The translations under genes and the position numbers were made by a program. The notes beneath the pieces are model-generated. The model ran no database searches. It was given only the letters and a program-made list of their open reading frames with translations, and was not told the DNA's origin. Source: an uncultured Bacteroidota bacterium (GTDB lineage Bacteria > Bacteroidota > Bacteroidia > Flavobacteriales > Flavobacteriaceae). Taken from it: 64,000 nt of DNA. This document shows, one piece after another, positions 1,174-39,463 of the stretch (within the stretch, counting starts at the first letter, position 1; each line of letters starts with the position of its first letter). The stretch covers positions 35,208 through 99,207 of the forward strand of contig CACCLB010000007.1 in NCBI GenBank assembly GCA_902546725.1. The letters run 5' to 3'.

Positions 1174-3624
1174 CTAAAAGTCAGGTTCTTCTCCTCCGCC
1201 TTCGAAACCGCCTCTGCGATTGTTTCTTCGTCTGTCCATCTTGCGTTCGTTTATACGATAAGTAAATGTAAAGATATAGCTGGGTTGTCTCCACTGGAAT
1301 TCAGTGTAGTTTCTAAAGTCAGCTGTTTCTGTAGTACTTTTTCTTCTGGAAGAATTAAAAATATCGCTTACTCTAAAGGAAAGTGTGGCTTTGTCATTAA
1401 ACAAAGGCTTGTTTAAAGCTCCAGAAAAGCGAACCACTCCTTTGGATTCTGTTTGAGCATTTGCTCTCGGACCAAAGTAAAATCCATTGAGTTGGGTATT
1501 GATTCCAAAAGCAAGAGGAAAACTACTGTTGAATCGCGCAAACCAACTTACAATTTCTCTGTCTAAAGGAACACCCTTATAGGAACCGATGGTTTCCGAA
1601 TTAAAAATATTAAAGTTACCGCTAAGACGAACTCGTCGTTTGGGTGAATAGGTCAAGGTAAACTCTGTACCTGTCCTAATGTTTTCTGAGAGGTTGACCG
1701 TAGTAGATCTAAATTCAGGTAATTCTACTAAAGGGTCTTCACTTACTACAACCAATTCCCCAGTAGTTTCTGTGATACGTTCTATAACTTGAGTTGACTT
1801 TTGATAATAGACCGAACCGTTAAAAGTAAACTTATCCCATCGTTTGAGATATCCCAAATCGAAGAGATTGGAATAGGAGGGATCCAAATCGGGATTTCCC
1901 TGTCTAAAGAAGGTTAAACTGGTAAGTGATCTAAATGGATTAAGCGACCACGATCTTGGACGTCGAATACGGCGACTGTAGCCCAAGGTGATGTTTTCTT
2001 TTTCTGTAAATTCAAAAGAAAAGTTCAGTGTAGGAAACCAATCGGTATAATCTTTTTCTTTGTAGATATTAGCCGTTTTTTGATCAATTTCTATATGGGT
2101 TTTTTCCATTCGAAGTCCCATTAAATAGGAGAACTTGTTTATTTTTTGACCGAATTGGGTATAGGCAGCATTTACATTTTGAGTAAAGCCTAAGAAATTA
2201 GTCAATTGTGTATTGGGAGTTCTTCCGCTATCCAATAAATCAAAAACATTGTAATCGGTTTCTTGGAAGCTAAAGTCTCCTCTATACCCCAATTCAAACT
2301 GAGTGTTTTCATTTACAGGCCAGACGTAATCCAGCTGTAATAAGGTTCTGCTTTGATCTTCAAAAGTGTCAGATTCCTGATTAAAAGTACTGGTGTTTTC
2401 CGCTAAATCGCTTTCATCTTCTCCACTGGATTCAGTTTGAAACTCAATGACCAACTCATGTCCTTTGTCGTCAAATTTTTTGGTAAAATTGGCAGTCAAT
2501 TGTTGGGAATTGTCGATTTCTTCTTCAAATTGATATCGACCAAATTGATCGACTATGACGCCTGCAGCGTTGAGGTTGTCTATTTCGGTGGTGTTGTTAC
2601 TTTCATTATCACTTCTTCTTACAAAACCGCTAACAGTAAGAGAAGTATCGTCATTAAAATAGTATTCAGCTCCGAGGTTAAAAAAGATACTCTTTCGATT
2701 TCGCTCATAGTCTCTGTCTTCATTTACAAAACGAACAGGATTAAAGTTTTCGCTTTCAAAAATTCCCCCTCCTCTAGATTCAGAATCTCTTAAGGATGTC
2801 GTACTGAAAATATTCAGTTTTTTGGTTCGCCAATTGAGGGTTGCATTCCCTCCATAGGTTGTTGGAAATCCGCCGTTAACGATAAAGGAACCGTTAAAAC
2901 CTTCCAACTCTTCTTTTTTTAATATCACATTCAATATACCTGCCGTACCCGAAGCTTCGTAGCGTGCTGAGGGAGAAGTAACGACCTCTACTTTTTCGAT
3001 AGACTCTGCAGGTAGGGATCGTAAGCCTTGTGGTCCCGAAAGACCCACCAAACCTGAGGGTTTTCCGTTGATCAAAATACGAACGTTTTGATTTCCTCTA
3101 AGAGCGACATTGCCTTCTACATCTACGGAAACTGAGGGAACGTTGTCCAACACATCTGCTACCGAACCTCCTCGGACAGTAATGTCTTTACCGACATTGT
3201 AAATCCGTTTATCCAATCGGATTTCCACTTCTGTACGTTCACCGACGAGTTCAACACCATCAAGTGCCTCAGCGGCTATCTCCAATTCAAAATTCCCGAG
3301 ATTTTCATTCGCTCGAATCATCCTATCCTCTAGGACGATTTTATCAAATCCTATGTATTCTATAGTAATATCGTATTTCCCTGGAAAGACTTCCAGGTTA
3401 AATTTCCCTTTGGTATCGGTGATTCCCCCTTGAATTCGGTTGGGAAATCGTTCGTTTACTAAAGAAATTGTCGCGTAATCTAAGGGTTCTTGGGTTTCTT
3501 TGTCAGTTACCATCCCCTCTAACTTAATTTTGGTAAAGTTAGCAGGTCTGCCTCCCTGAGGTCCTTGAGCATAAAGCTCAGGGGTCAATCCAATGAGGAT
3601 TAGTAATAGCAATAGTTTTTTCAT
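1174..3624 (-). CDS. TonB-dependent outer-membrane receptor with an N-terminal carboxypeptidase-regulatory-like domain
   Basis: The ORF has a signal peptide (MKKLLLLLILIGLTPELYAQ), a CarbopepD_reg-like segment (GMVTDKETQEPLDYATISL), a plug, a long beta-barrel and a C-terminal aromatic residue. The track start at 3654 is TTG; I prefer the ATG at 3624. Confidence 0.85.
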   Translation of the reverse strand: MKKLLLLLILIGLTPELYAQGPQGGRPANFTKIKLEGMVTDKETQEPLDYATISLVNERFPNRIQGGITDTKGKFNLEVFPGKYDITIEYIGFDKIVLEDRMIRANENLGNFELEIAAEALDGVELVGERTEVEIRLDKRIYNVGKDITVRGGSVADVLDNVPSVSVDVEGNVALRGNQNVRILINGKPSGLVGLSGPQGLRSLPAESIEKVEVVTSPSARYEASGTAGILNVILKKEELEGFNGSFIVNGGFPTTYGGNATLNWRTKKLNIFSTTSLRDSESRGGGIFESENFNPVRFVNEDRDYERNRKSIFFNLGAEYYFNDDTSLTVSGFVRRSDNESNNTTEIDNLNAAGVIVDQFGRYQFEEEIDNSQQLTANFTKKFDDKGHELVIEFQTESSGEDESDLAENTSTFNQESDTFEDQSRTLLQLDYVWPVNENTQFELGYRGDFSFQETDYNVFDLLDSGRTPNTQLTNFLGFTQNVNAAYTQFGQKINKFSYLMGLRMEKTHIEIDQKTANIYKEKDYTDWFPTLNFSFEFTEKENITLGYSRRIRRPRSWSLNPFRSLTSLTFFRQGNPDLDPSYSNLFDLGYLKRWDKFTFNGSVYYQKSTQVIERITETTGELVVVSEDPLVELPEFRSTTVNLSENIRTGTEFTLTYSPKRRVRLSGNFNIFNSETIGSYKGVPLDREIVSWFARFNSSFPLAFGINTQLNGFYFGPRANAQTESKGVVRFSGALNKPLFNDKATLSFRVSDIFNSSRRKSTTETADFRNYTEFQWRQPSYIFTFTYRINERKMDRRRNNRRGGFEGGGEEPDF

Positions 3625-4689: not shown

Positions 4690-5271
4690 TTATTTTTTCT
4701 TTGGAGCGATTAAGATGGTCATCTTTTTCCCTTCCAAAACTGGCATTTGTTCTACTTTTCCTAACTCTTCCAAATCTTGTGCTAAACGAAGCAACAGAAT
4801 TTGACCTTTTTCTTTAAATACGATCGAACGACCTTTAAAGAATACGAAGGCTTTTAACTTAGCACCTTCTTTAAGAAACTTTTCTGCGTGTTTCTTTTTG
4901 AATTCATAGTCGTGTTCGTCTGTGTTGGGCCCGAAGCGAATTTCTTTGATTACGATTTTACTCGTTTTTGCTTTGAGTGCCTTTTCACGTTTTTTTTGCT
5001 CGTATAAAAATTTTTTATATTCTAAGATTTTACAAACTGGAGGCGAAGCTTTGGGTGATATTTCGACCAGGTCTAGCCCGATCTCTTCAGCTAAAGACAA
5101 TGCTTTTCTGAGTGGATATACACCCACTTCAACATTATCACCAACAAGTCTGACCTCTTGAGCAGTAATCTTTTGATTAATGCGGTGGGGGTCAACTTTA
5201 ATTACCCTTCCCGGGCGGTTTGTTCTTCGTCTTCGTATTGCTATGTCTTCTTGTTTTAAATTATACTTCAA
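4690..5271 (-). CDS. infC: translation initiation factor IF-3 (non-AUG start; exact start uncertain)
   Basis: [18 protein letters not shown]...LDLVEISP...PVCKI...[12 protein letters not shown] is the IF-3 sequence. There is no ATG in the N-terminal region. Candidate starts are TTG at 5271, which overlaps the thrS stop, and ATA at 5244. Confidence 0.9.
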
Positions 5272-7207
5272 AAGTAGCCTGGCTACTTTTTATCTCACTA
5301 TTCAACTTTTCAACTACTTCTTTCAAACTTAAACTACCTAAATCGCCTTCTGAATGTTTGCGTAAAGATACATTGTCTTCTGTAGCTTCTTTTTCTCCTA
5401 GGATGATCATATAGGGAACTTTGGTCATTTCAGATTCTCGAATCTTTTTCCCAATGGTCTCATTTCGATCATCTAAGAGGGCGCGAATTTCGTGATTTTC
5501 CAAGAAATTTAAAACTTTTTGAGCGTAATTTTTGTGTTTTTCACTTACGCACAAGATATTTACCTGATTCGGCATCAACCAAAGCGGGAAGTTTCCTCCT
5601 GTATGTTCGAGTAAAATCGCGACAAAACGCTCCATGCTTCCAAAAGGTGCACGGTGAATCATCACCGGTCTGTAGAGCTCGTTATCACTGCCTTTGTACT
5701 GCAATTCAAAGCGTTCGGGTAGGTTGTAATCTACCTGTATGGTTCCCAATTGCCACTGGCGACCCAAGGCATCTTTGACCATAAAATCCAATTTAGGTCC
5801 GTAAAAAGCGGCTTCACCCGTTTCGACGATATAGTCCAGATTTTTTTCTTTGGTTGCATTCAATATGGCGGCTTCAGCCAGTTCCCAGTTTTTAGTAGAA
5901 CCGATGTATTTTTCTGGTTTTTCAGGATCGCGGAGGGAAACCTGAGCTGTAAAATCTTCAAAGCCTAAGGAGCTGAAGACATAAAGTACCAAATCGATGA
6001 CTTTTTTAAACTCTTCATCCAATTGTTCTGGCATACAGAAAATATGGGCGTCATCTTGAGTAAATCCACGAACACGAGTCAGTCCATGCAATTCTCCACT
6101 TTGTTCGTAGCGGTAAACTGTACCAAATTCAGCATAGCGTTTAGGAAGGTCGCGGTAACTCCACGGCTTGGCTTTGAATATCTCACAGTGGTGCGGGCAG
6201 TTCATGGGTTTTAATAAAAACTCTTCGCCTTCCGCTGGAGTGTGGATGGGCTGAAAACTATCAGCTCCGTATTTTTCGTAATGTCCAGAGGTCATATAGA
6301 GCTCCTTGTTCCCGATATGGGGAGAAATGACTTGTTCGTAACCGGCTTTAGCTTGAGCTTTTTTCAAAAAATTCTCTAAACGTTCCCTAAGAGCAGCTCC
6401 TTTGGGCAGCCAGAGGGGTAAGCCTTGTCCTACCTTTTGAGAAAAGGTAAACAAATCCAACTCTTTTCCCAGTTTACGATGGTCTCGTTTTTTGGCTTCC
6501 TCAACCCTTTCTAGGTATTCCGTTAGCTCTTTTTGCTTGGGAAAGGAAATTCCGTAAATCCGTGTCAGTTGTTGTTTGGTCTCGTCACCTCGCCAATAAG
6601 CTCCTGCTACATTGGTCAATTTTATCGCTTTGATGACCCCCGTTTGAGGAATATGACCCCCACGGCAAAGGTCCGTAAAGTCGGCATGGTCGCAAAAAGT
6701 AATGGTGCCGTCTTCTAAATTTTCAATCAGTTCAACCTTATAAGGGTTGTTTTCTTTTTTGTAGTAGTCGAGTGCCGCTGCTTTGGAACTGGAGCGCATT
6801 TTAAACTCAAACTTTTGACGGGCAAACTCCAACATTTTCTTTTCAATGGCGATTAGGTCTTTTTCTGTCAAGCTGTGCTCACCAAAATCTGCATCGTAAT
6901 AAAAACCGTTTTCAATTGCAGGACCTATGGTAAGTTTACAGTCTGGATAAAGCGCCAACAAAGCCTGTGCAAGAACGTGGGCTGAGGAATGCCAAAAGGC
7001 GGTTTTTCCCTCTTTGTCGTTCCAGGTAAAGAGCTGAATCTCCCCGTCTTCTTGTAGTGGGGTAGAAGCCTCTACCGTTTGCTTGTTGAATTTGGCAGAG
7101 AGCACATTACGTGCCAGTCCTTCGCTGATGCTTTGAGCAACCTCAAAAGGGGTAGTGCCTTCGAGATAAGAACGGACAGACTGATCTGGAAAACGAATTT
7201 CAATCAT
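5261..7207 (-). CDS. thrS: threonine--tRNA ligase
   Basis: TGS, editing and class II catalytic domains are present ([30 protein letters not shown]). The track start at 7219 is TTG; the ATG at 7207 gives [10 protein letters not shown], a typical ThrRS N-terminus. Confidence 0.96.
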
Positions 7208-7265
7208 AGTTGGATTCAATGATGCGCAAAGATAAGCGGTCTCCTGCTAGCACGCAATCGATTCT

Positions 7266-7496
7266 TTAAAGTTTTGTTTTACGTTCACCTAAAAGCGCAT
7301 TGACCAGGGTTTTGATGCCCGTAAAACCGTAATAGATGGCAGTCATGAGAAAAATAACTCCTAAGATCAATACAGGTACGTAAAGGGGGTGCCCCTGATT
7401 TTTAAATGCCTGATGAACAACTACGGGGCCTATAAAACAACAGAGCAAAAACAAGCTCATCTTTTTAAGGCCTTTGATCAATAAGGGTTTGTTCAT
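7266..7496 (-). CDS. small membrane protein, 76 aa, hypothetical
   Basis: There are two clear hydrophobic helices. It has an ATG start and is co-directional with thrS. Confidence 0.5.
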   Translation of the reverse strand: MNKPLLIKGLKKMSLFLLCCFIGPVVVHQAFKNQGHPLYVPVLILGVIFLMTAIYYGFTGIKTLVNALLGERKTKL

Positions 7497-7570
7497 CGTG
7501 ATTCTTTCTCAGTCAAAGATAGGGAAGTGGCGTAGAATATAGGGGACCGTTTTTAGTCCGATTGAAAGTT

Positions 7571-8302
7571 TTACTTAACCTTATAAACTAACTTCATAGT
7601 AATGGAGGCGGTTTTGTCTCTGGAGCTGGTATTAAAGGTGCCTCCCCAGGAGTAATTTTCAGTAGAATTTTGACCTGTAATTTGAAAAACACCCATTTTA
7701 GCAGATTGTAAAGCTCCCAACTCTCCATTGTAATAGGCGGCTATTTTTTCTGCTCTGATTCGGGCATCCTCCGTGGCTTTGGAAATCATTTCAATTTTGA
7801 GATCAACCAGTTGGGTATAATAGTATCGGGGGGCCTCCGAATAAAAGTTTACTCCTTGGTTAAGCAGTTCGGTAACCTCTCTGGAGATTTTTTCAATTTT
7901 TTCCACCTCATTGGATTCGATTTGTACGGATTGGGTCAACTCATAGCCCACAAATTCTTTCCCCATAAAATCCCCTTTATGAGAATATTTACTCCTTGTT
8001 TTTTCTCTAAAATTGACTGCACTAAATACCAGACGTTCTTCTGCAACTCCTTTGGAAACTAAGTAGTTTTTGATGATGGTTTTATCGTTTTCCAGATTGA
8101 TGTAGGCTCTTTTTAAATCGTAAAGCTTCGCCATAAAGGCACCGTCCCAAACAATTAAGTCTGAGGTAAAATTTTGTTCTCCTAGACCGGTAACTTGAAT
8201 CTCACCGCTGACTTTAGACCGATCTATATAAGCCTTGCCTAAAAAAATTGAGGAAATAATGATGGCTATACCAAAGATAAGGGCGTTTGTAGGTGTTTTC
8301 AT
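7571..8302 (-). CDS. SIMPL (DUF541) domain-containing protein
   Basis: 243 aa with an N-terminal membrane anchor. The overall pattern resembles the YggE/SIMPL family, but this was recognised by eye only. Confidence 0.55.
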   Translation of the reverse strand: MKTPTNALIFGIAIIISSIFLGKAYIDRSKVSGEIQVTGLGEQNFTSDLIVWDGAFMAKLYDLKRAYINLENDKTIIKNYLVSKGVAEERLVFSAVNFREKTRSKYSHKGDFMGKEFVGYELTQSVQIESNEVEKIEKISREVTELLNQGVNFYSEAPRYYYTQLVDLKIEMISKATEDARIRAEKIAAYYNGELGALQSAKMGVFQITGQNSTENYSWGGTFNTSSRDKTASITMKLVYKVK

Positions 8303-8410
8303 TAGGGTGTTGTTTGAGGTTTACACTAAATTATAAAATAATTGTTTAATTGGATTATGAGTGGGGTATATTTATTTTAGGAAGTTTGATGGTTTGGGAA
8401 AGGTTTTTTA

Positions 8411-8478
8411 TTGGTAACGTTTGGTATATGAAGCGTAGCATCCGAAGGGTGCTATGAATTTATATACAGTGTTGGCAA
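8411..8478 (-). repeat. attC-like imperfect palindrome A (68 bp)
   Basis: In gene orientation it reads TTGCCAAC-actg-TATATAAATTCA-[TAGCACCC ttcg GGATGCTA]-cgcttCATATAC-caaac-GTTACCAA. It begins 6 nt after the stop of the 8485..9939 ORF. Confidence 0.55.
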
Positions 8479-8484
8479 TAGTTT

Positions 8485-9939
8485 TTAGTTCTTTTTAAGG
8501 TCATTTAGTTTTTTATGAGAATCTTCATATCCCAACTCAATGGCTTTTTGATAACTTTTTATAGCATCTTCTATTTGGTTATTTGCCTTATAACCATAAC
8601 CTAAAGAGTCCCACAGGTTTCCTTCGCTAGGATAAAGCTCAATATTCTTTCTAAATAATGCTACAGCCCAATCTTTATGTTCATTGATCATTAATAGAAT
8701 ATTTCCGATTGAATTTAGCAATCTAGAACTTGTAAAATCATCGGAATATTTTTGCTTAAGTAAAGCGATGAGTTCTTCAGGTTTATCGCTATTGTTGTTT
8801 TGCATGAAGCTAACAGTATATGCATAAACATTTTTTTCAATAGGGGTTGGGACATACGTCTCATCCAAGATCATTTTGGCAACTGTATAGGCAATGAATT
8901 CGACCTTTTCGCTATTGGCATTTGTGGCATAAACAATATTGATGTCTTTTTCCGGATACCAAATGAGTGAATGTGAGTATGCACCGTTTGACCCATTATG
9001 AGCAATGCGCTTAGTGGTACGATCTAAAAATTTCACTGACCAGCCATAACCATAGCTTAGCTTACCGCTTGGATAATCTGCATAAGGGGTGGTCATTTTT
9101 TCAAAAGACTCCTTTGATATAATCTTATTTGATTTTAGGGCTTTATACCAAAGAATCATGTCGTTTTGAGTAGAGTTGATCCCTCCATTAGCTTTTAAAT
9201 ACCAACTGATATTACCATCTCTTTGGTATTTTAAAATAGGTGATTCATCTTCTAAAACACCTCGGTTGTAGCTTCTCGAAATTTGTTTTGTGTCCCATTT
9301 TGGTAATAAGTATCCTGTTTGATTCATTTCAGCAGGAATAAAAAAGTACTGATTTAAAAATTTTTCATATTCTAATCCTGAAGCTAATTCTATAATTCTT
9401 CCTAAAATACTGTATCCAGTATTAGAATATTTATATTTTTCTCCTGGGGTAAATAGTAATTTTGTTGCAAAAAGTTTTTCAAAAAAATCTTTTGTAGTAA
9501 TTTTTACAAAGTCCTTTCTTACTGCATCAGGAAAACCAGCCGTATGTGTTAATAACTGATGTATAGTGATGTTTTTTTTGTCGTTTGGAAGGTTGTTGAA
9601 GTATAAGGATATAGGGTCTCTTTCATTTATTTTTCCCATTTCAACTAATTTTAAAATAGCAGTTGCAGTAAACTGTTTGGTGTTAGAGCCAATATCAAAA
9701 ATGGTATTAGGGTTGTTTGTCGATTGGGTGTCTCTATTCGCGATTCCATACCCTTTATTAATGATAATTTCTCCATTTTTAATTACGGCAATTGCACCAG
9801 CAAAACCATTTTCGGTTCCTGTCTCTAAATACGTGTTTATTTTGGAATAAAGTGCCGAGGGTGAAACCTCATTTTGAGCAACAGAAATGCTAATTGATGA
9901 AATGAAGAATAGAAGGGTAAAACTTATTATTGTTTTCAT
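8485..9939 (-). CDS. secreted serine hydrolase of the beta-lactamase/PBP (class C-like) family with a C-terminal TPR region
   Basis: It has a signal peptide, an S-x-x-K motif (GSNTKQFTATAI), a YSNTGY motif, and C-terminal TPR-like repeats (AIKSYQKAIELG). Confidence 0.8.
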   Translation of the reverse strand: MKTIISFTLLFFISSISISVAQNEVSPSALYSKINTYLETGTENGFAGAIAVIKNGEIIINKGYGIANRDTQSTNNPNTIFDIGSNTKQFTATAILKLVEMGKINERDPISLYFNNLPNDKKNITIHQLLTHTAGFPDAVRKDFVKITTKDFFEKLFATKLLFTPGEKYKYSNTGYSILGRIIELASGLEYEKFLNQYFFIPAEMNQTGYLLPKWDTKQISRSYNRGVLEDESPILKYQRDGNISWYLKANGGINSTQNDMILWYKALKSNKIISKESFEKMTTPYADYPSGKLSYGYGWSVKFLDRTTKRIAHNGSNGAYSHSLIWYPEKDINIVYATNANSEKVEFIAYTVAKMILDETYVPTPIEKNVYAYTVSFMQNNNSDKPEELIALLKQKYSDDFTSSRLLNSIGNILLMINEHKDWAVALFRKNIELYPSEGNLWDSLGYGYKANNQIEDAIKSYQKAIELGYEDSHKKLNDLKKN

Positions 9940-9966
9940 GATCTTTATTTACTTGAATTCAAATTA

Positions 9967-10124
9967 TTGCCAACGGTCTATGTATGAGTAGTAGCGCCTG
10001 CCTGCCGCAGGTAGGGATTTATACTCGCTATCCGCCAAAGGCGGATTTACGCTGACCATTGTTTTATGCTTGTACTTTCGTTTAAGAACTTAAACCGCTA
10101 TTTTTTATATACCGTGTTAGGTGC
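9967..10124 (-). repeat. attC-like imperfect palindrome B (158 bp, composite)
   Basis: In gene orientation it reads GCACCTAAC-acgg-TATATAAAAAA ... two TAAATCC+GC-hairpin units (ATCCGCC ttt GGCGGAT; CCTACCTGC g GCAGGCAGG) ... TCATACATA-gacc-GTTGGCAA. It ends 3 nt after the stop of the 10128..11045 ORF. Confidence 0.55.
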
Positions 10125-10127
10125 TGG

Positions 10128-11045
10128 CTATTCTAATTTCAACTCACTGATTATTTTTTCTGGTGCTTCTTCTTGTGGAAAATGCCCAATTTCTTTCAGT
10201 TTTATCACTTTAGGATTATTCCAATTCTCAATCCAATAATTGAGTTCCTGTTCTCTAAAGGCAATGTCTTTCATTCCCCAAATTATCGTGGTTGGAATTG
10301 AGTTAATTTTTTCTTTTTCTTGCCAAAGACAGTTCAACCATTCACTTGACCCAATAATCTCTTTTGGAAATACATAGCATCCTTTTCGGTCTTTTTTAGT
10401 TTCTAAATGTTTGAAGTAGTGTCTATGAATTTGTCTGTCTAACTTTTTTTTATTTCCAACAGCTTTCTTAACTACCTTTCTCCCAAAAAAATTAAAGTGT
10501 TTAATCATAAACTTTCCAAAGCCGCCAACCATAAATTTGCTGAATTTTTGATAATAAGGGTCGTTTTCAACTGACCACATCCAAGTATTTAAAATGATTA
10601 TTTTTTTAATTTTTTCGGGATGTTTCAAAGCGTACGATAGTCCAATTGGACCACCCCAATCATTAACAACTAAAGTAATGTTGTCAAGATTTAAACTATC
10701 CATAAACAGTTCAAAATTTTGTGCGTGACTTTTGGGTAAAAAATCCCAATCATATGGTTTATTGGATAACCCAAAACCAATTTGGTCAGGAACAATACAT
10801 CTGTGGGTTTTAGAAAGTTCTTTGACTATGTTCCGAAATTCAAACGACCAACCTGGATTTCCGTGAACCATTACAATAGGCTCGCCCTTTCCTTCGTCTA
10901 TATAGTGTATTTTTCCGATTGATAGCTCAAAATAATTGTTTTCAAAAGGATATTCTGCTCTGTCAAGCCATTTAGGGTAATTTGTGTTTTGTGCAGATAA
11001 ATTCATACTGATACTAATTAAGATTAAAATAATAATTCGATTCAT
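10128..11045 (-). CDS. secreted alpha/beta-fold hydrolase, haloalkane-dehalogenase/epoxide-hydrolase-like
   Basis: It has a signal peptide, an HGNPGWSFEFR oxyanion motif, a nucleophile elbow VVNDWGGPIG (Asp nucleophile type) and a C-terminal GHFPQEE. Confidence 0.8.
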   Translation of the reverse strand: MNRIIILILISISMNLSAQNTNYPKWLDRAEYPFENNYFELSIGKIHYIDEGKGEPIVMVHGNPGWSFEFRNIVKELSKTHRCIVPDQIGFGLSNKPYDWDFLPKSHAQNFELFMDSLNLDNITLVVNDWGGPIGLSYALKHPEKIKKIIILNTWMWSVENDPYYQKFSKFMVGGFGKFMIKHFNFFGRKVVKKAVGNKKKLDRQIHRHYFKHLETKKDRKGCYVFPKEIIGSSEWLNCLWQEKEKINSIPTTIIWGMKDIAFREQELNYWIENWNNPKVIKLKEIGHFPQEEAPEKIISELKLE

Positions 11046-11162
11046 TTTGTCCGTTTTAATCTTAGACGAATGAGAAGGTCAAAACGGTCGAACATTATTT
11101 ATCATCTATTACTTCTCGCAATATTTGAAGTATGGTATTTTCCAATTCAGCCGCATTACTAT

Positions 11163-11882
11163 TTAGAGGATTGATTTGATTTGATTGATAAGGGCAAATC
11201 GGATATCAAGATTGGTCTCAGCATCTTTTGTTTGACTTAATCCTGTTGCTCTTAATTTTGATTCAGAATCTAGTGTATCTTGTAAAAAATCATTGAGTTC
11301 TGCACATTGGCAGCAAACTCCTTCTTTGTTGATTAAGGCACATCTTTTTTCGTAGCGAACTTGCAATTCTTTTCGTCCATCAAATAGAAGGTGCTTGATA
11401 ATTCCTTCTGTTTTATCCAATATTTTAGCAATTTCTTTTCTTTTGAAATGATAAATTTCCTTTAAAATAATGGCAATCTGTTGTTCTAAATTTAAGTTTT
11501 TGGCAATACAAGTGAAACAGTAATTAATGTGTTCCACTATTTCAAATTGTTGTTCGGTTTGATTTTGGAATGAACCAATTATTCTTTGTTGATAAGAAGG
11601 TGTTGAAAATGATGCGTTTTTACATTCGTCTTGTACTTCTAATTTCCATCTGTTTTTAACTCTCTGATTGTCTTTTGCCAAATTTGTAGCAATAGCAAAT
11701 ACCCAAGTTTTGAATGAACTTTTGCCTTGAAAAGTGTCAACTTTTTGCTTTATCTTTATGTAAGTGTCTTGCAGCAAGTCTTTTGCATCTTCTCTATTTG
11801 CAGACAAGCGATATAGATATGATTCAAGTTGCTCTTGAATTGCCATGAATTCTGTTTCTATGTTTGATTTTTTAGTTTGCAT
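11163..11882 (-). CDS. ECF-type sigma-70 family factor with Cys-rich linker and C-terminal extension
   Basis: Sigma-2 (DLLQDTYIKI...FKTWVFAIATNLAKD) and sigma-4 HTH (IAIILKEIYHFKRKEIAKILDKTEGIIKHLLFDGRKEL) regions are present. It also has H118-x3-C122-x2-C125 and C181-x8-C190-C191-x-C193. Confidence 0.8.
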   Translation of the reverse strand: MQTKKSNIETEFMAIQEQLESYLYRLSANREDAKDLLQDTYIKIKQKVDTFQGKSSFKTWVFAIATNLAKDNQRVKNRWKLEVQDECKNASFSTPSYQQRIIGSFQNQTEQQFEIVEHINYCFTCIAKNLNLEQQIAIILKEIYHFKRKEIAKILDKTEGIIKHLLFDGRKELQVRYEKRCALINKEGVCCQCAELNDFLQDTLDSESKLRATGLSQTKDAETNLDIRFALINQIKSIL

Positions 11883-11892
11883 TGCTCTGCTT

Positions 11893-11927
11893 GCACCTAA
11901 CTATTGTATATGTACCCCCTTAGGTGC
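11893..11927 (-). repeat. short attC-like palindrome C (35 bp)
   Basis: GCACCTAA / TTAGGTGC is a perfect 8 bp inverted repeat around a 19 nt loop containing TATAT. The minus-strand GTTAGGTGC box lies 10 nt upstream of the sigma-factor ATG. The stop codon of the 66 aa ORF lies inside the other box. Confidence 0.45.
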
Positions 11928-12120
11928 GTTTATTTCTTTTATATTTTACAGTTTGTTCAACAATACATCCCAAATTGGCAGGTATTGTACCACTCACTTT
12001 TCGGATATAAAAATTTTGATTTGCCCTTTTGTAAAGTGAAAGCCAACCTCCAAAGTCGTATTTTGGTTTAAAAAAGATATCAAATGGATATAGGGTAAAT
12101 AGAGACTGTAGGCTAGTCAT
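11920..12120 (-). CDS. hypothetical 66 aa protein (possible cassette ORF)
   Basis: An ATG-initiated ORF with no recognisable family. Its coding status is unproven. Confidence 0.25.
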   Translation of the reverse strand: MTSLQSLFTLYPFDIFFKPKYDFGGWLSLYKRANQNFYIRKVSGTIPANLGCIVEQTVKYKRNKRT

Positions 12121-12180
12121 TTGGGGTTCTTATCATTGGGGTTATACGCACTAAAGATATAAAAAAGCCGGATATAAAAA

Positions 12181-12996
12181 CTAAGTTTTTTGGTAGGCGC
12201 TAATCGCAGCACGCACGTTATGATGTTGTTTTAACAAGTCTTGGGCAACGGTTAAGGAGACTTGAAGTTCATCCATCACCATACGTTCTGCCCGTCCAGT
12301 AAGTTTGTCATTGGTAAGTTGCATATCCACCATTTTATTTCCTTTGACATGTCCCAGTTGGATCATGGTGGAGGTGGTGATCATATTGAGAATCAACTTT
12401 TGAGCCGTTCCAGCCTTCATACGAGAACTTCCAGTCAAAAATTCAGGCCCAACGATGACTTCAATAGGAAAGTCGCTTACAGCGGCTAGGGGAGTGTCAT
12501 TGTTGCAAGTGATACAAGCTGTTGGTATTCCATGTTGTTGGCAGAGGTCGAGTCCGCCAACGACATAAGGTGTGGTACCCGAAGCGGCAATACCCACGAC
12601 GATGTCTTTGGTACTGATTTGCTGCTCCTTTAAATCTTTCCACGCCTGTTGGGTATCGTCTTCTGCTTTTTCAATCGAATTTCGAAGGGCGTGATCGCCA
12701 CCAGCGATAAGTCCGATTACTTTTTCGGCTGGTGTACCAAATGTGGGGGGACATTCTGAGGCATCCAATACGCCGAGTCGACCGCTGGTTCCAGCTCCGA
12801 TATAAAACAGTCGCCCACCGTTTTGAAGTTGTTCTACGACTTTAGCGATCAGTTCTTCAACTTGAGGGAGTACTTTTCCCACAGCTTGAACCGCCTTTTG
12901 GTCTTCTTGATGCATGCCTTGCAGTAGTTCGGCTATGCTTTTTTGTTCTAAATCGTTGTGGTGTGAATCTGCTTCGGTGATTTTGTTAAATGCCAT
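12181..12996 (-). CDS. murQ: N-acetylmuramic acid 6-phosphate etherase
   Basis: SIS domain; GAGTSGRLGVLDASECPPTFG and GIAASGTTPYV are characteristic of MurQ. Confidence 0.9.
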   Translation of the reverse strand: MAFNKITEADSHHNDLEQKSIAELLQGMHQEDQKAVQAVGKVLPQVEELIAKVVEQLQNGGRLFYIGAGTSGRLGVLDASECPPTFGTPAEKVIGLIAGGDHALRNSIEKAEDDTQQAWKDLKEQQISTKDIVVGIAASGTTPYVVGGLDLCQQHGIPTACITCNNDTPLAAVSDFPIEVIVGPEFLTGSSRMKAGTAQKLILNMITTSTMIQLGHVKGNKMVDMQLTNDKLTGRAERMVMDELQVSLTVAQDLLKQHHNVRAAISAYQKT

Positions 12997-13110: not shown

Positions 13111-14340
13111 TTATGACTTTAGCTTGGCCTCTAAATTCTTTTTTAAAGCACTTAAAAACTTTTGCGTCGTCAAGTAGTCTGAACTTTTCATATCGTCGCC
13201 GTGAATGAGAACAGCCAAATCTTTGGTCATTTTTCCACTTTCTACTGTTTCTACACAAACGTTTTCCAGTTTGGTACAGAAATCGATCAAGTCTTGATTG
13301 TGGTCCAGTTTTCCTCGGTGAGCCAATCCTCTGGTCCATGCAAAAATGGAGGCGATAGGGTTGGTAGAGGTTTCTTTTCCTTGCTGGTGTTGACGGTAGT
13401 GACGGGTCACTGTTCCGTGGGCTGCTTCTGCTTCCATAGTTTTTCCGTCAGGAGTCACCAGGGTAGAGGTCATCAGTCCTAAAGAACCAAAACCTTGAGC
13501 TACGGTATCCGACTGTACGTCACCGTCGTAATTTTTACACGCCCAAACAAAACCACCGTTCCACTTCATGGCTGCAGCTACCATATCGTCAATTAAACGA
13601 TGTTCGTAAGTAATGCCTGCTTTTTGGAATTTACTTTTAAATTCATTGTCAAAAACCTCTTGAAAGATGTCCTTAAAACGTCCGTCATAGGCTTTTAAGA
13701 TGGTATTTTTAGTCGATAGGTACAAAGGCCACCCTTTGTCTAATGCGCGGTTCATACAAGAACGGGCAAAACCGTAAATGGAAGAATCGATATTGTACAT
13801 GGACATGGCAACTCCGTTTTCTTGGAAATGGTAAACTTCCCAAGTTTTAGGGGTTCCTCCGTCATCAGGGGTAAATGTCATGGTGAGTTTCCCTTTTCCT
13901 TCAGTTACTGTATCAGCAGCTTTGTATTGATCTCCAAAGGCATGACGACCGATACAGATCGGTTTGGTCCATCCTTGAACATAACGCGGAACGTTACTCA
14001 TGATGATGGGTTCTCTAAATACCGTTCCATCTACGATATTACGGATGGTTCCATTGGGAGAGCGCCACATATTGGAAAGGTTGAATTCTTGAACACGATC
14101 TTCATCTGGAGTGATGGTCGCACATTTGATTCCAACATTGTGTTCTTTGATAGCGTTTGCTGCTTGTATGGTAATTTTATCTTCTGTAGCGTCTCTTGAA
14201 GTGACAGATAAATCAAAATATTTGATATCGAGGTCAAGATAAGGAAGGATCAGTTGATCTTTAATGAATTTCCAAATGATTCGAGTCATTTCATCCCCAT
14301 CCATTTCTACTACGGGGTTTACTACTTTAATTTTTGACAT
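13111..14340 (-). CDS. icd: NADP-dependent isocitrate dehydrogenase (homodimeric, eukaryote-like IDH1/2 type)
   Basis: [23 protein letters not shown]...[10 protein letters not shown]... The track ORF extends to 14424, but the conserved N-terminus starts at the ATG at 14340. Confidence 0.93.
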
Positions 14341-14408
14341 GAGTTTAAATTTTGATTTTCGCTTGCAAATATAAGTGCTAGCTTTTATTATTTGGCTAAA
14401 AAGAGCAT

Positions 14409-14434
14409 AAAAAAACCGCCTCATGGGCGGTTTT
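14409..14434 (-). terminator. rho-independent terminator after rplS
   Basis: The minus strand reads AAAACCGCC-catga-GGCGGTTTTTTT, 10 nt after the rplS stop. Confidence 0.8.
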
Positions 14435-14789: not shown

Positions 14790-14923
14790 TTGATAGTTTA
14801 TTAAGTTTTAAAAGCCAACATACACGGTTATCGTCAGTGGTTGATCTTTTGTGGTGCAAAATTAAACTTATTTTTTGAGTATACAATAGCAGTAGCAATT
14901 TTATCAGCTTGCAATGGGGCTGT

Positions 14924-15679: not shown

Positions 15680-17071
15680 TTAGTATTGCAAGAGCAGCAT
15701 CTTCTTTTCGCCAGAAGGACTGAGTAGTAGCAAGTCTTCCACCTCAGAAGCGTCAATCCCTTTGATGTCTGATAAATCATCAACTTTTTTGCCGTTGACT
15801 TCAAGTATGACATAACCGTTGTCTATGCCCCTCTGATAAAGCCTGCGACTGTTCATGTTTGAGATATAGAGCCCGTGATCTGTGTCGTATTCCTTTTTTT
15901 GTTCTTCTGTCAAGGGGCGTACTTCCATATAATAGAAAATAGCTCGATTGATTTTTTCCAGACGGACAGAAACTTTGTTTTCCTTTCCATCTCTTTTAAA
16001 TACCACACTTACTTTTTCTCCAGGACGTTTACTAGCTAGATAACCCGATAAATCAGCGAATTCATTGATTTTGATACCGTCCACGCTTTTGATGATGTCA
16101 TTGGCTTTTAATCCAGCGAGATCTGCGCCCAATCCTTTTTCCAAATCGGTAATGTAGAACCCTTCGGTCTCGTCAACTTCAAAACGAGCAGCAAGCTGAG
16201 CGTCTAGTGCTTGTCCCATTACTCCCAATAACCCCCGCTGGACATCGCCGTATTCAATGATGTCTTCAAAAACCTTACGGGCCACGTTGCTGGGCACGGC
16301 AAAGGAATAGCCTACATAACCTCCAGTCATGGAAGAAATGGCGGTATTGATCCCTATAAGCTCACCGTTGGTATTGACTAAAGCTCCCCCGCTATTGCCT
16401 CTGTTTACTGCAGCGTCTGTTTGGATATAGGATTCGTTTTTACGGTCTCTTTTATTCAAATCTCGTGACTTGGCACTGATGATCCCTGCGGTAACTGTAG
16501 AGTTAAGGTTAAAGGGATTTCCCACTGCTAAAACCCATTCTCCAATGCGTGTTGCGTCCGAGTTTCCAAAATAGACATAGGGAAGTTTTTCCTCAGCTTT
16601 GATTTTTAAAACAGCAATATCGGTATCGGGATCTGTCCCGATGACTTTGGCTTCAAAGGTTTTATTGTCGTTGGTTGTGATTTCAATGGTGCTGTTGTTT
16701 TCTATTACATGATAATTTGTAATGATGTAACCGTCTGGTGAAACAATGACCCCAGAACCCGTTCCTATTCGTTCAGGCAAGTCCTCCTCGCCGAACCAAT
16801 AGCGGTAAATAGAGGGGAGGTTGTCATCGGCGATGCTTGTATTTTTAACATGCACTACTGCATTGACTGTCTTTTCGGCAGCAGAGGTAAAGTCGGTTGC
16901 TTCCGCTGCATAGCCGTTGGTATTAAAGGTGTAGTTAGTAGGGATCAGCGTGGGGCTTTGTTCTGGCTGAACATTGCTATTTTCTCCAGTTTGAAAAAAC
17001 TGATCATAAATAAAAATACTGCAAAAGGCACTTAAAAGTGCAATACTTAAAGTTTTGAAAAATGATTTCAT
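15680..17071 (-). CDS. periplasmic serine endoprotease, HtrA/DegP/DegQ family, with PDZ domains
   Basis: A trypsin-like domain with GNSGGALVN, followed by PDZ regions. The ATG at 17071 (MKSFFKTLS signal peptide) is preferred over the TTG at 17092. Confidence 0.9.
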   Translation of the reverse strand: MKSFFKTLSIALLSAFCSIFIYDQFFQTGENSNVQPEQSPTLIPTNYTFNTNGYAAEATDFTSAAEKTVNAVVHVKNTSIADDNLPSIYRYWFGEEDLPERIGTGSGVIVSPDGYIITNYHVIENNSTIEITTNDNKTFEAKVIGTDPDTDIAVLKIKAEEKLPYVYFGNSDATRIGEWVLAVGNPFNLNSTVTAGIISAKSRDLNKRDRKNESYIQTDAAVNRGNSGGALVNTNGELIGINTAISSMTGGYVGYSFAVPSNVARKVFEDIIEYGDVQRGLLGVMGQALDAQLAARFEVDETEGFYITDLEKGLGADLAGLKANDIIKSVDGIKINEFADLSGYLASKRPGEKVSVVFKRDGKENKVSVRLEKINRAIFYYMEVRPLTEEQKKEYDTDHGLYISNMNSRRLYQRGIDNGYVILEVNGKKVDDLSDIKGIDASEVEDLLLLSPSGEKKMLLLQY

Positions 17072-19506: not shown

Positions 19507-20228
19507 AATCCTGCTTCAATAATAAAAATACAGGGACGTTTTTCAACATCAGGCTTTTGCTTTTTCCACTCTTGTATGGTCAAGGTTTTGATAAATTCAG
19601 TACTCAAGGTCAGGTCACAAGCAATACAGACCAATGTAGAGGGAAGTAGGGTGGATATGAGATCTTTAAAAAGCACTGTGCTTCTGTAAGGAGTTTCTAT
19701 AAATAGTTGTGCCTGATTTTCACGTGTTGCTTTTTTTTCAAATTTTAAAAGCGCTTGTTTTCGTTGTTTTTGATCTACAGGTAAGTAGCCGTTAAATGCA
19801 AAGCTCTGTCCATTCAGACCCGAGCTCATCATCGCTAAAATCAATGAGGAGGGCCCTACCAGAGGTTTGACCACAACCCTAATTTTATGTGCTTTTGAAA
19901 CGATAATAGCTCCTGGATCAGCAACTCCTGGTGTGCCAGCATCTGACATCAGTCCCATAGGAACTCCTTCTAAGCAGGGGTTGAGGTAGGTTGCAATTTC
20001 TTCCTGAGTGGTAAATTTGTTCAGCGGATAAAGGTTTAGTGCGTCTTGACTTTTATTAGGAGCGAGTTTTTTGATAAACCTTCGAGCAGCTTTTTCGTTT
20101 TCAATGATAAAATGATTAAGTTCTTCTACTTTGGTCTTTACAGATAGAGGTAAAACCTCTAAAGGAGAATTGTCCCCTAGGGTTGAGGGAATAAGAAAAA
20201 GGGTACCGTAAGTGTTTTCTTTCTCCAT
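19503..20228 (-). CDS. SAM-dependent tetrapyrrole-methylase-fold methyltransferase (RsmI-like)
   Basis: LFLIPSTLGD...MSDAGTPGVADPG... matches the TP_methylase fold. Its position next to dnaA is conserved in Flavobacteriia. Confidence 0.7.
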   Translation of the reverse strand: MEKENTYGTLFLIPSTLGDNSPLEVLPLSVKTKVEELNHFIIENEKAARRFIKKLAPNKSQDALNLYPLNKFTTQEEIATYLNPCLEGVPMGLMSDAGTPGVADPGAIIVSKAHKIRVVVKPLVGPSSLILAMMSSGLNGQSFAFNGYLPVDQKQRKQALLKFEKKATRENQAQLFIETPYRSTVLFKDLISTLLPSTLVCIACDLTLSTEFIKTLTIQEWKKQKPDVEKRPCIFIIEAGF

Positions 20229-20683: not shown

Positions 20684-22111
20684 CTATAGACTGAGTTTCT
20701 GGCTTAAGTCTTCTACGTATTTACGGAATTGCTTGTCCGTAAAGCTCAGATTGTCAACTGTTTTACAGGCGTGTAGTACCGTTGCGTGATCTCTTTTCCC
20801 AATTTGATTTCCGATACTGGCTAGTGAGGCTTTGGTGAATTTTTTAGCGAAGTACATTGCCAACTGTCGCGCCTGGACTATATGTCTCCTTCTCGTTTTC
20901 GACTGCAGCGTTTCAACATCCATCTGGAAGTAATCGGAAACAACTTTCTGAATATAGTCGATAGAAACTTCGCGTTTGGTATTTTTAACAAATTTCATCA
21001 CCACCTCTTTGGCGAGGTCTAAGGTGATTTCTGCCTTGTTGAAAGAGGATTGTGCAATTAGAGATATAATAGCTCCTTCGAGTTCACGAACGTTTGTTTT
21101 GATATTTTTAGCAACATACTCAATGATATCTTCTTCAATTTCCACACCGTCTCTATACAATTTGTTTTTGAGTATGGAGATACGCGTTTCGTAATTAGGC
21201 AATTGCAATTCTGCTGAAAGGCCCCACTTAAATCTAGAGAGCAAACGCTGTTCAATGTCTTGCATGTCAACAGGCGCTTTGTCAGAAGTTAAGATAACCT
21301 GTTTGCCGTTTTGATGAAGGTGATTGAAAATGTGGAAAAACACATCTTGAGTTCCGGTTTTACCGGATAAAAATTGAACGTCGTCAATGATGAGTACATC
21401 CAAGAGCTGATAAAAATGAATAAAATCGTTTCGAGTATTCTTTTTGACGGCTTCGATATACTGCTGGGTAAATTTCTCTGCAGCTATATATAGTACAGTT
21501 TTATCTTGATATTTCTCTTTAATCTCGACACCTATCGCATGTGCTAAGTGGGTTTTTCCTAAACCTACTCCTCCGAATATTAGAAGCGGATTAAAAGAGG
21601 TGCCTCCAGGTTTTGAAGCCACTGCTAGTGCAGCTGATCTTCCCAACCGGTTGGAGTCTCCTTCTAAAAAGTTTTCAAAACTGTAATTTGGATTCAATTG
21701 AGATTCAATCTGCAAGTTTTTGATTCCGGGTATTACAAAAGGATTTTTTAATTCAGCATTTTGAGAGTGGAGTGGAGCATCTACCTGTTGTGGACTCAAT
21801 CCAGAGCGGTTTGAACTAGGAATATTTTCTGTAAAAGCAGCGGTGTTGCCAAAACGATTTTCCATTCGGATGGAATAGACTAGACGTGCATCTGGGCCTA
21901 ATTCTTTTTGCAATGCAGTTTTAAGAAGTTTGACGTAATGTTCTTCGAGCCATTCGTAGAAAAATTTACTAGGAACTTGAATGTTTAATACATTGTCGTT
22001 AATCTTGAGGGGAACTATAGGGAGAAACCATGTCTTGTATGCCTGTGGCTGGATATTATCTTCGATAAAAGTGAGGCAGTTATTCCATACCGCAGAAGCA
22101 TTATGACTCAT
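20684..22111 (-). CDS. dnaA: chromosomal replication initiator protein DnaA
   Basis: AAA+ Walker A (GGVGLGKTHL), LIIDDVQFL, and the C-terminal DNA-binding helix (IGKRDHATVLHA). Confidence 0.98.
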   Translation of the reverse strand: MSHNASAVWNNCLTFIEDNIQPQAYKTWFLPIVPLKINDNVLNIQVPSKFFYEWLEEHYVKLLKTALQKELGPDARLVYSIRMENRFGNTAAFTENIPSSNRSGLSPQQVDAPLHSQNAELKNPFVIPGIKNLQIESQLNPNYSFENFLEGDSNRLGRSAALAVASKPGGTSFNPLLIFGGVGLGKTHLAHAIGVEIKEKYQDKTVLYIAAEKFTQQYIEAVKKNTRNDFIHFYQLLDVLIIDDVQFLSGKTGTQDVFFHIFNHLHQNGKQVILTSDKAPVDMQDIEQRLLSRFKWGLSAELQLPNYETRISILKNKLYRDGVEIEEDIIEYVAKNIKTNVRELEGAIISLIAQSSFNKAEITLDLAKEVVMKFVKNTKREVSIDYIQKVVSDYFQMDVETLQSKTRRRHIVQARQLAMYFAKKFTKASLASIGNQIGKRDHATVLHACKTVDNLSFTDKQFRKYVEDLSQKLSL

Positions 22112-23736: not shown

Positions 23737-23808
23737 TTGTTAAAATATTTTGGTCAGTACGATCAAGTACACTATAATTGAGGCTAAATTTATAACAAAA
23801 ATAAGGGA

Positions 23809-39407: not shown

Positions 39408-39463
39408 ATCTGTGCTTTTAGGGGATTAAACTGAATTTCTATACTTTTACTAAAATAATAAAA

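Follow-up and report, generated by a model that had tools for sequence, protein, structure and literature searches.

A probable decayed cassette array beside murQ in an uncultured Flavobacteriaceae bacterium and an integron-like platform that appears widespread in Bacteroidota

What kind of element left three imperfect palindromes, each directly behind a minus-strand gene, between murQ and the DUF6095-thrS genes of an uncultured marine Flavobacteriaceae bacterium? The interval lies in a stretch of 64,000 nucleotides of contig CACCLB010000007.1 (hereafter the window), where every gene of the region from thrS through icd is on the minus strand. In the minus-strand direction the order is murQ, orf66, palindrome C, cassette 1 (a sigma factor gene and a hydrolase gene), palindrome B, cassette 2 (a beta-lactamase-like gene), palindrome A and a SIMPL gene. 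A first-pass annotation had proposed an integrase-less integron cassette array with three attC-like elements. From sequence comparison, we consider it highly probable that a cassette array of an integron-type platform survives at this locus as a fossil. The proposal was borne out in the cassettes, their swapped boxes and the lack of any remaining integrase. However, the array is not canonical in the recombinase insertion or in the spacers and extra base of its sites, and its best label is that of a decayed member of an integron-like variant which appears to be widespread in Bacteroidota.

The sequences of A, B and C were found where they had been placed before. On the plus strand, A carries the boxes TATTGGTAAC (8409-8418) and GTTGGCAATA (8471-8480), B carries TATTGCCAAC (9965-9974) and GTTAGGTGC (10116-10124), and C carries GCACCTAAC (11893-11901). 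The boxes pair across the gene modules. GTTGGCAATA and TATTGCCAAC, which flank the beta-lactamase-like gene, are complementary at 10/10 positions (13/14 when extended), where 8/8 had been reported, and GTTAGGTGC and GCACCTAAC, which flank the sigma factor and hydrolase pair, are complementary at 9/9. Within the elements the pairing is poor, as had been claimed, with matches at 5/7, 1/7 and 0/7 variable box positions for A, B and C, respectively. Pairing across a module and not within an element is what results if each cassette begins with the TTnnnn half of the site it carries. When the three intergenic regions were shuffled by dinucleotides, equally long exact inverted matches in both pairs were obtained in 3 of 2000 cases, a figure that carries no positional constraint and ignores that the matches are located exactly at AAC/GTT-terminated boxes. 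The low G+C of the modules, for which the earlier hand counts proved roughly right, amounts to 0.315 to 0.327 in the three module genes (0.315 to 0.322 in those of cassette 1), compared to 0.462 in murQ, 0.428 in thrS and 0.407 in icd.

The individual elements differ in how much of a site they retain. In gene orientation, A consists of an R'' box TATTGCCAAC (8471-8480), a 3-nt spacer, the L'' box GTATAT (8462-8467), a GC-rich hairpin, the L' box ATATAC (8424-8429), a 5-nt spacer and the R' box GTTACCAATA (8409-8418); the spacers therefore measure 3 nt and 5 nt, where both had first been described as 4-5 nt. B keeps an R'' half, GCACCTAAC-ACG-GTATATA (~10098-10124), and an R' half, CATACATAGACC-GTTGGCAATA (9965-9990), around a rearranged centre of 120 nt with two hairpins at 9997-10015 and 10025-10041. 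It looks like two half-sites joined around ~75 extra nt, and could have arisen by fusion following cassette loss or by insertion into the loop. C reads GAAATAAAC-hairpin-ATATAC-AATA-G↓TTAGGTGC, where the arrow marks the presumed crossover point. Of the three attC-like elements first proposed, A alone is intact, B is a degenerate or composite site, and C is better described as an attI-like junction, for reasons given below. The second hairpin within B, ATCCGCCAAAGGCGGAT at 10025-10041, is perfect.

We curated 21 sites outside the window by hand anchors from four other loci (L084, L085, L086 and L088), as loose half-site regular expressions were too noisy. In these sites, an R'' box that ends in AAC is followed by a 3-nt spacer, L'', a variable centre and L', and a 5-6-nt spacer then leads to an R' box that starts with GTT. 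Their box-to-box length is 53-221 nt, and the two L boxes are of equal length. The L box is 81% paired, with 4/6 pairs changed on both sides, and AAC/GTT is nearly invariant. Within a site, the AAC/GTT pairs and one further R-box pair hold, while the outer three are mostly unpaired, which matches the prediction from chimeric R boxes. The mean number of matches at the seven variable positions was 4.7 across a cassette, 2.1 within a site and 2.35 in all-against-all comparisons. Random box pairings reach 6/7 in 3.8% of cases, and the two cassettes of the window score 6 and 7. Cross-cassette complementarity was systematic in the four other arrays.

A covariance model (R1) was built from the 21 curated sites, with no window sequence included. 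It found A at full length (8409-8480, minus strand) with 26.3 bits and E = 0.0025, and this was the sole significant match on either strand of the 64 kb. The next match, at 23693-23748 on the minus strand (15.8 bits, E = 0.5), has AAC...GTT ends and a short stem, and is probably due to chance. R1 found sites in L084, L085, L088 and L118. In 1.42 Mb of fetched loci, all 16 matches at E ≤ 1 lay within array loci and on the gene strand, and the 80 Flavobacteriaceae loci fetched around murQ (L001-L080, ~1.2 Mb of ordinary chromosome) contained none.

These results bear on the possibility that A, B and C are repetitive extragenic palindromic (REP) or bacterial interspersed mosaic element (BIME)-like palindromes or terminators, with coincidental complementarity between them and low-G+C genes that arrived by another route. 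Such palindromes would explain the GC-rich hairpins followed by T-rich tracts in A, B and C, and would suit a Y1 transposase gene that lies a few kb away in the homologous locus L082; moreover, the shuffle test, confined to the window, was only moderately strong. However, the explanation fails because all R1 matches are confined to array loci. No member of the site family lies in the remaining 60 kb of the window or in the ~1.2 Mb of ordinary chromosome, and in these sequences there is none of the scatter that the first-pass annotation had named as contrary evidence. The cross-cassette complementarity, furthermore, is systematic elsewhere and is kept by compensatory change. The hairpin and T-tract signatures lie on the plus strand and the preceding genes on the minus strand. 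A, B and C therefore do not represent ordinary terminators of those genes, and intrinsic terminators of the upstream genes were rejected. We regard palindromes of this kind as largely refuted and give them hardly any weight.

A preference for folding of the bottom strand, of ~2.1 kcal/mol, has been reported for attC sites (PMC5027507). In the present family, the bottom strand was more stable in 31/37 sites with a mean difference of -1.73 kcal/mol (Wilcoxon p = 2.5e-5), so that the bias has the reported direction and size. Among the window elements, A follows this bias, with -12.3 kcal/mol for the bottom strand versus -4.5 kcal/mol for the top strand, but B and C do not conform. In the bottom-minus-top comparison A gave -5.3 kcal/mol, whereas the top strand of B folds better.

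Homologs of the beta-lactamase-like protein, 74-80% identical, were found in arrays of Psychroserpens, Robiginitalea, Tenacibaculum and a metagenome-assembled genome (MAG). The loci of an uncultured Psychroserpens (L084), Robiginitalea sp. IMCC44478 (L085) and Tenacibaculum amylolyticum (L086) are long runs of small same-strand genes. Homologous cassettes with matching ends were present in L082, L084, L085 and L086, and their neighbourhoods differed. The cassette start TTGGCAATAATTT and the R'' box are kept: the start is (G/T)TTGGCAATAATTTCAC in L084, L085 and L086 and GTTGGCAATAATTT in the window, and the end T(A/G)TT(G/A)CCAAC follows directly past the stop codon. In L082, which encodes an 80% identical protein, the boxes are GTTACCAAT / ATTGGTAAC, compared to GTTGGCAAT / ATTGCCAAC in the window. 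By its sequence, this difference is a double compensatory change through which the cassette ends stay complementary. Box complementarity across genes was also observed within the runs of L084-L086 (for example GTTAGCCATA/TATGGCTAAC, 10/10), and a site of L084 may serve as an illustration: ...CTAAC-AAC-GTGTATAATTAATTGC...CATACACAAATAC-GTT.... The cassettes of the relatives contain an additional HTH_3 gene that is absent from the window, whose copy of cassette 2 has lost it. The hairpins of the homologous cassettes are too diverged to decide whether a hairpin travels with its gene; orientation and crossover are settled by the attI-type junctions described below.

Some further features of these homologous arrays were noted. 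At 2237-2902 of L082, and also in L083, an IS110-family transposase fragment (PF01548) lies at the expected hairpin of the beta-lactamase-like cassette site, with the Y1 transposase (PF01797) 3 kb beyond it. One IS110/IS1111 subgroup targets attC sites. The Robiginitalea array in L085 contains at least six paralogous DUF6090 cassettes, most of which have a common 5' leader with the hairpin CCCGATAGTTATCGGG directly after the GTT box (leaders at 1480-1530, 2460-2506, 3395-3436, 15730-15780 and 16640-16677).

Comparison of the 80 murQ loci showed where the array was inserted. DUF6095 adjoins murQ in most of them, usually within ~30 bp and otherwise within ~200 bp, while the window carries 4.7 kb at this place (7497-12180). 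The conserved flanks are murQ and DUF6095/thrS; the SIMPL gene, which had been taken for a housekeeping flank, is absent from most relatives and belongs to the insert. The content of the slot turns over between relatives, in line with the earlier expectation for this interval. It is empty in most loci, and in L088, which has the same backbone as the window (rplS-icd-murQ ... DUF6095-thrS), it holds ~8 kb with ten different same-strand genes. One box pair of L088, GTTAGCGGC/GCCGCTAAC (9/9), encloses five genes, among them those of a histidine kinase and a response regulator, and another is GTTGTACACA/TGTGTACAAC (10/10). A cassette of two genes, considered atypical at first, is therefore not unusual in this family. 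The slot of L002 is filled by a different gene of 576 aa with no recognisable sites. Contig L081 is 99.4% identical to the window array, with the order unchanged.

What recombinase could have served this slot? In L003, whose MurQ is 80% identical to that of the window, the ~430 bp after murQ encode a C-terminal tyrosine-recombinase fragment on the same strand as the cassettes, with the motifs HPLRHSF...LLGHSS...YTH...KSPFD. Many related contigs contain this catalytic remnant of 104 aa (72-98% identical), which adjoins murQ in L003, L088 and L089. Its catalytic residues are mutated in L087 and L089, and the remnant is therefore a pseudogene there. In the window, orf66 occupies the corresponding place. 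Its start ATGAnnAnCCTACAG is common to L001 and L003, and its C-terminus NFYIRKVSGTIPANLGCIVEQTVKYKRNKRT, up to the stop codon, aligns with the tail DFYITKSATIHADFGSIVEQKQKYNGNKHT of the L088 remnant, also up to the stop codon (DNA alignment, z = 9.4). No catalytic motif is left in orf66. A tblastn search of the recombinase remnant against the murQ-C interval of the window returned nothing significant, and the homology was recovered only via the closer relative L088. In L087 (9940-10400), a 5'-truncated remnant with the same ~60-nt upstream sequence lies beside a pyridine-nucleotide oxidoreductase gene instead of murQ; since the neighbouring gene differs, one truncation is found in two genomic contexts.

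The sequence behind the remnant explains element C. After the stop codon, the stretch GAAATAAAC-hairpin-TATAC-nTA-G is conserved, and the sequences diverge right after G↓TT, continuing as TTAGGCAC in L003, TTGGCAGT in L087, TTAGCGGC in L088, TTAGCAGT in L089 and TTAGGTGC at C of the window. A conserved left part with five different continuations indicates that C is an attI-like junction and not a cassette site. The G↓TT crossover inferred by the first-pass annotation is thus supported by the swapped boxes, by the compensatory change in L082 and by these junctions.

An exhaustive HMMER search with the remnant as the query yielded full-length relatives of roughly 390-640 aa, which were seen only in Bacteroidota more distant from the window. 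The family is large in this phylum, with more than 6000 relatives at E ≤ 1e-40, some of which were checked for arrays, and bears the NCBI name "site-specific tyrosine recombinase/integron integrase". The full-length proteins have a PF13495 + PF00589 core preceded by an N-terminal extension of 120-260 aa with repeated G.(K/R)W...W..PY motifs, which matches no Pfam family. TIGR02249, which is their best or second-best match in NCBIfam, aligns in two stretches with 200-229 bits, below its cutoff of 265; for NF040815 the scores lie near the cutoff of 220, and several proteins pass. In an alignment with IntI1 (the probe was checked to be 100% identical to annotated IntI1), they lack the ~44-aa IntI1-specific segment, as XerD does, and share with IntI1 the catalytic residues and a C-terminal G..[VL][RK]SPLD tail. 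The nearest solved structure by sequence is VchIntIA (PDB 2A3V, E = 6e-41), and the match skips its residues 179-243.

The loci with full-length genes displayed the junctions that are expected of an attachment site. Between L095 and L096, no difference occurs as far as ...CATACAGATAC-G↓TTA, beyond which the two sequences part. In L110-L115 the gene is the same, as are the 258 nt that extend to ...CAACACAATA-G↓TTA, and behind them each of the six samples has a different first cassette. It is thus in relatives that an attachment site with varying cassettes is demonstrated, and not in the window itself. L102 and L095 have first cassettes whose end boxes are complementary at 10/10 and 9/10 positions, each followed by a 3-nt spacer and a hairpin. 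L100 differs from L095 in recombinase and junction and has the same first cassette. Metagenome contigs with a full-length gene often stop 0-200 nt past its stop codon. In the cultured Nibribacter koreensis (L118), at least 15 small same-strand open reading frames (ORFs) follow the recombinase gene, and each ends in a conserved site of ~70 nt with the 3/6 geometry and cross-cassette complementary boxes. Model R1 matched 14 sites of this array. Since R1 was trained on Flavobacteriaceae sites, the match to Nibribacter sites ties A of the window to the sites served by the recombinase family. On this sequence evidence, the insertion-less recombinase family is likely to be the enzyme of the platform.

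Other observations concern the same loci. The first-cassette start TTATGGGCAAGTTTAAGAAACGAC occurs at 2240 in L095 and 11191 in L100, with a close variant at ~10725 in L110, behind three different recombinase genes and junctions; a near-identical cassette start behind three platforms suggests cassette exchange between platforms. The Nibribacter array end at 21171-21221 (minus strand) of L118 adjoins a convergent beta-lactamase/TPR gene of the family to which the window cassette gene belongs. In L048 (Gangjinia marincola), a 275-aa insertion-less IntI/Xer-like recombinase lies at the contig end, which puts its array context out of view, and a large palindrome, GTTGAAGGCAATGG...CCATCGCCTTCAAC, is located upstream of it (19880-19965); its architecture is not that of A.

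A recombinase remnant at the edge of a low-G+C insert beside a conserved gene could also stem from a genomic island. The remnant would then be that of a phage-type or integrative and conjugative element (ICE)-type integrase, with the cassettes as passengers that never moved singly at this locus. The loss of the whole block from L001 in a single deletion and the second genomic context of the remnant in L087 would agree with such an island. However, the relatives that have the remnant and the junction diverge exactly after G↓TT and differ in content cassette by cassette, and six different first cassettes stand behind identical full-length genes. In addition, the full-length proteins have a simple Xer/IntI-type core nearest to VchIntIA, with no recognisable arm-binding domain, which has been linked to phage and ICE integrases (PMC8138268), and no phage or conjugation genes are present. 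We therefore consider an island of this type very unlikely, and return to the cassette array and its relation to known integrons.

Features of integrons that were found include palindromes with R and L boxes, chimeric boxes at G↓TT, the bottom-strand bias and an attI that receives different cassettes. Two features were lacking, namely the IntI-specific insertion and the combination of a 5-6-nt spacer on both arms with an extrahelical L'' base. Canonical attC sites have an unpaired central spacer of 5-6 nt per arm and extrahelical bases on the L'' arm (PMC5027507). Four class 1 attC sites that we read from plasmids (those of aadA5, aac(6')-Ib4, dfrA17 and aac(6')-IIc) showed the geometry R''-5 nt-L'' with one extra L'' base and L'-5/6 nt-R', in agreement with that description, and model R1 detected none of the class 1 attC sites searched, which points to divergence in sequence and geometry. 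IntI is defined by an additional domain (PMC9668308; PMC2095811), and this insertion is held essential and is used to define integrons. The extrahelical bases of the bottom strand in its folded form are contacted by elements specific to IntI (PMC2095811). A recombinase without the insertion would presumably not read extrahelical bases, which would be consistent with sites that lack them and carry their asymmetry in the spacer.

Structural comparisons with the known systems lead to the same picture. As in sedentary chromosomal integrons and attC-site clusters that have no integron integrase (CALIN; PMC4889954; PMC9024848), a recombinase platform with an attachment point is followed by a same-strand array, and the palindrome at the end of each cassette is imperfect, with an inner L box and an R box of the AAC...GTT type. 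The R boxes are chimeric owing to the G↓TT crossover, folding is better in the bottom strand, the sites within an array resemble each other (L084, L118), and decay leads to integrase-free arrays. In contrast, the Bacteroidota recombinase lacks the IntI insertion and has the 120-260-aa N-terminal extension, the spacers are 3 nt (R'') and 5-6 nt (R') instead of 5-6 nt on both sides with no extra L'' base, and multi-gene cassettes with their own regulators occur. VchIntIA and IntI1 are similar to the family as the nearest structure and in the catalytic residues and C-terminal tail of IntI1; however, the family skips their insertion (179-243 in VchIntIA, ~44 aa of IntI1) and has an extra N-terminal region. 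XerC, XerD and XerA share the simple two-domain core of PF13495 and PF00589 without an IntI insertion. They differ from the array family in that the latter has another C-terminal tail and the N-terminal extension, and adjoins variable cassette arrays with no dif-type function. Treponema-type integrons reside in a host phylum other than Bacteroidota. They have canonical IntI proteins, which carry the additional domain, and canonical attC sites. Their intI is transcribed toward attI (PMC3607928).

Could the locus then be an ordinary CALIN, with canonical attC sites, a classical IntI encoded elsewhere or lost, and an unrelated remnant as a neighbour? In its general plan the array follows integrons (AAC/GTT boxes, exchanged R boxes, same-strand array and a folding bias of attC size, PMC5027507), reviews list Bacteroidota among the phyla with integrons, and a co-oriented intI is known in Treponema. 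A CALIN comprises at least two attC sites within a few kb and no integrase nearby; the neighbourhood is integrase-free, and A alone among A, B and C is model-supported. However, the geometry is unlike that of the four attC sites, with a 3-nt rather than a 5-nt R'' spacer and no extra L'' base, and canonical attC sites escape the family model. In five related genomes, what adjoins the array is a remnant from the insertion-less family, whose full-length members stand at attI-like junctions, and no canonical IntI was seen in any fetched locus. IntegronFinder surveys also find almost nothing in Bacteroidetes, namely only In0 elements and a single complete integron (Salinibacter). We thus consider an ordinary CALIN improbable here.

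A classification of recombinases described the insertion as "not fully conserved" in an integron-like subgroup and did not describe arrays (PMC8138268). No description of the platform was found in the literature searched, which mostly excluded subscription journals and is no proof of absence. Taking the sequence comparisons together, we lean somewhat towards the broader proposal that Bacteroidota host a large, apparently undescribed branch of integron-type gene capture. This branch would use an IntI-like recombinase without the insertion and with a novel N-terminal repeat domain, transcribed toward the attachment site, and an asymmetric 3/5-6-nt spacer would replace the extrahelical bases. It would be active in nature, as indicated by the six different first cassettes behind one identical gene.

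The following mechanism may be proposed. The platform would have inserted between murQ and the DUF6095-thrS genes (7497-12180 in the window), with an attachment point that lies 45-260 nt past the recombinase stop codon in active relatives. Circular cassettes would be inserted by a crossover at G↓TT, each with a TTnnnn start; at its end, the complementary nnnnAAC box and a 3-nt spacer would precede an L-box hairpin, which a 5-6-nt spacer separates from G. The responsible enzymes would be the insertion-less, N-terminally extended IntI-like recombinases, and the substrate would be the folded strand complementary to the genes, as in integrons. The strand-marking that extrahelical bases provide in canonical sites may fall to the asymmetric 3/5-6-nt spacer. 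The window copy, which lacks a recombinase and has one site damaged, is now immobile unless an enzyme acts in trans.

Several observations weigh against a cassette array moved by this recombinase family. The link between array and recombinase runs through a short remnant, and its catalytic part survives in relatives only. The best NCBIfam match of the L003 remnant, TIGR02249 (integron integrase), is barely above XerC/XerD (71.5 versus 67 bits), and no recombinase or remnant was seen at the upstream array ends in L084 and L086. Model R1 did not recognise B and C as whole sites (≤ 5.6 bits), and only A passed. At the other end of the insert, R1 found no site at SIMPL, and the G+C of this gene is host-like (0.385); this part of the insert may be of another origin. 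Finally, L001, the closest relative (MurQ 93% identical), has lost the whole array and is a deletion derivative whose deletion does not end at sites. Its homology with the window runs from murQ to ~12103 and resumes at ~7657, which places the deletion at ~12102 to ~7658 of the window, the breakpoints (7340-7540 of L001) lie inside the remnant ORF and inside SIMPL, and a 3' remnant of SIMPL is retained.

The features of the window are collected in Table 1. The L19-Flavobacteria leader, together with the nearest relatives, which are uncultured Flavobacteriaceae MAGs, supports the membership of the source in Flavobacteriaceae. This leader was the sole match in an Rfam scan of the window, which contained no attC-like family. 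IntI is absent from the 64 kb, as had been stated, and the sole tyrosine recombinase there is XerD, 26 kb away. Exact-sequence look-ups of the window beta-lactamase-like protein and of P0008 returned no record.

Table 1. Positions of the array, its predicted sites and the surrounding genes in the window
Feature	Position	Strand	Basis or remark
thrS	5261-7219	-	beyond the DUF6095 gene
DUF6095 gene	7266-7496	-	Pfam PF19589; conserved downstream flank of the slot; adjoins murQ in most Flavobacteriaceae loci
SIMPL/DUF541 gene (7571-8302) with flanks	7497-8408	-	distal part of the insert; no recombination site after it
Site A, sole intact attC-like recombination site	8409-8480	-	model R1 and folding
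Cassette 2	8418-9973	-	TT of GTTGGCAATA, beta-lactamase-like gene, site A; ends at G of the R' box of A
Beta-lactamase-like serine hydrolase with TPR tail	8485-9939	-	Pfam PF00144
Site B, degenerate or composite	9965-10124	-	both outer boxes pair with cassette partners
Cassette 1	9974-11900	-	TT of GTTAGGTGC, sigma factor, hydrolase, site B; ends at G of the R' box of B
Alpha/beta hydrolase	10128-11045	-	Pfam PF00561
Extracytoplasmic function (ECF)-type sigma factor	11163-11882	-	Pfam PF04542/PF08281
Site C, integrase-proximal attI-like junction	11893-11936	-	homology to the post-remnant sequence in L003, L087, L088, L089
orf66 (66 aa), last remnant of a tyrosine-recombinase gene	11920-12120	-	only the C-terminal tail recognisable
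Conserved leader, murQ stop codon to remnant	12103-12180	-	aligns with L001, L003, L004
murQ	12181-12996	-	Pfam SIS/GKRP domains; conserved upstream flank of the slot; synteny in 80 loci
icd	13111-14424	-	
L19-Flavobacteria ribosomal-protein leader	14816-14843	-	Rfam RF03130, 35.7 bits; upstream of rplS
XerD, housekeeping tyrosine recombinase	38508-39425	-	TIGR02225, 329.3 bits versus cutoff 329.6

Taken by itself, the window is of modest significance, being a dead two-cassette array that marks past gene flux at the murQ locus. Integrons are the model for gene capture via folded single-stranded DNA sites, and the insertion and the extrahelical bases are treated as essential and used for detection. 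If the present interpretation is true, it would reveal which parts of the mechanism are dispensable, as the G↓TT crossover, the chimeric R boxes, the bottom-strand bias, an attI that accepts multiple cassettes and long arrays are all kept. It would also represent a second, independent solution to strand choice. Standard integron detection would miss the platform or report fragments of it, which would help to explain the near-absence of integrons from Bacteroidetes. Genes annotated as "site-specific tyrosine recombinase/integron integrase" in Bacteroidota may mark real cassette platforms, and contigs that break just past such genes hide variable arrays. Gene-cassette biology would thereby be extended to a phylum with almost no surveyed integrons, and marine, soil and gut Bacteroidota would hold a pool of cassette genes that includes serine hydrolases of the beta-lactamase family and regulators.

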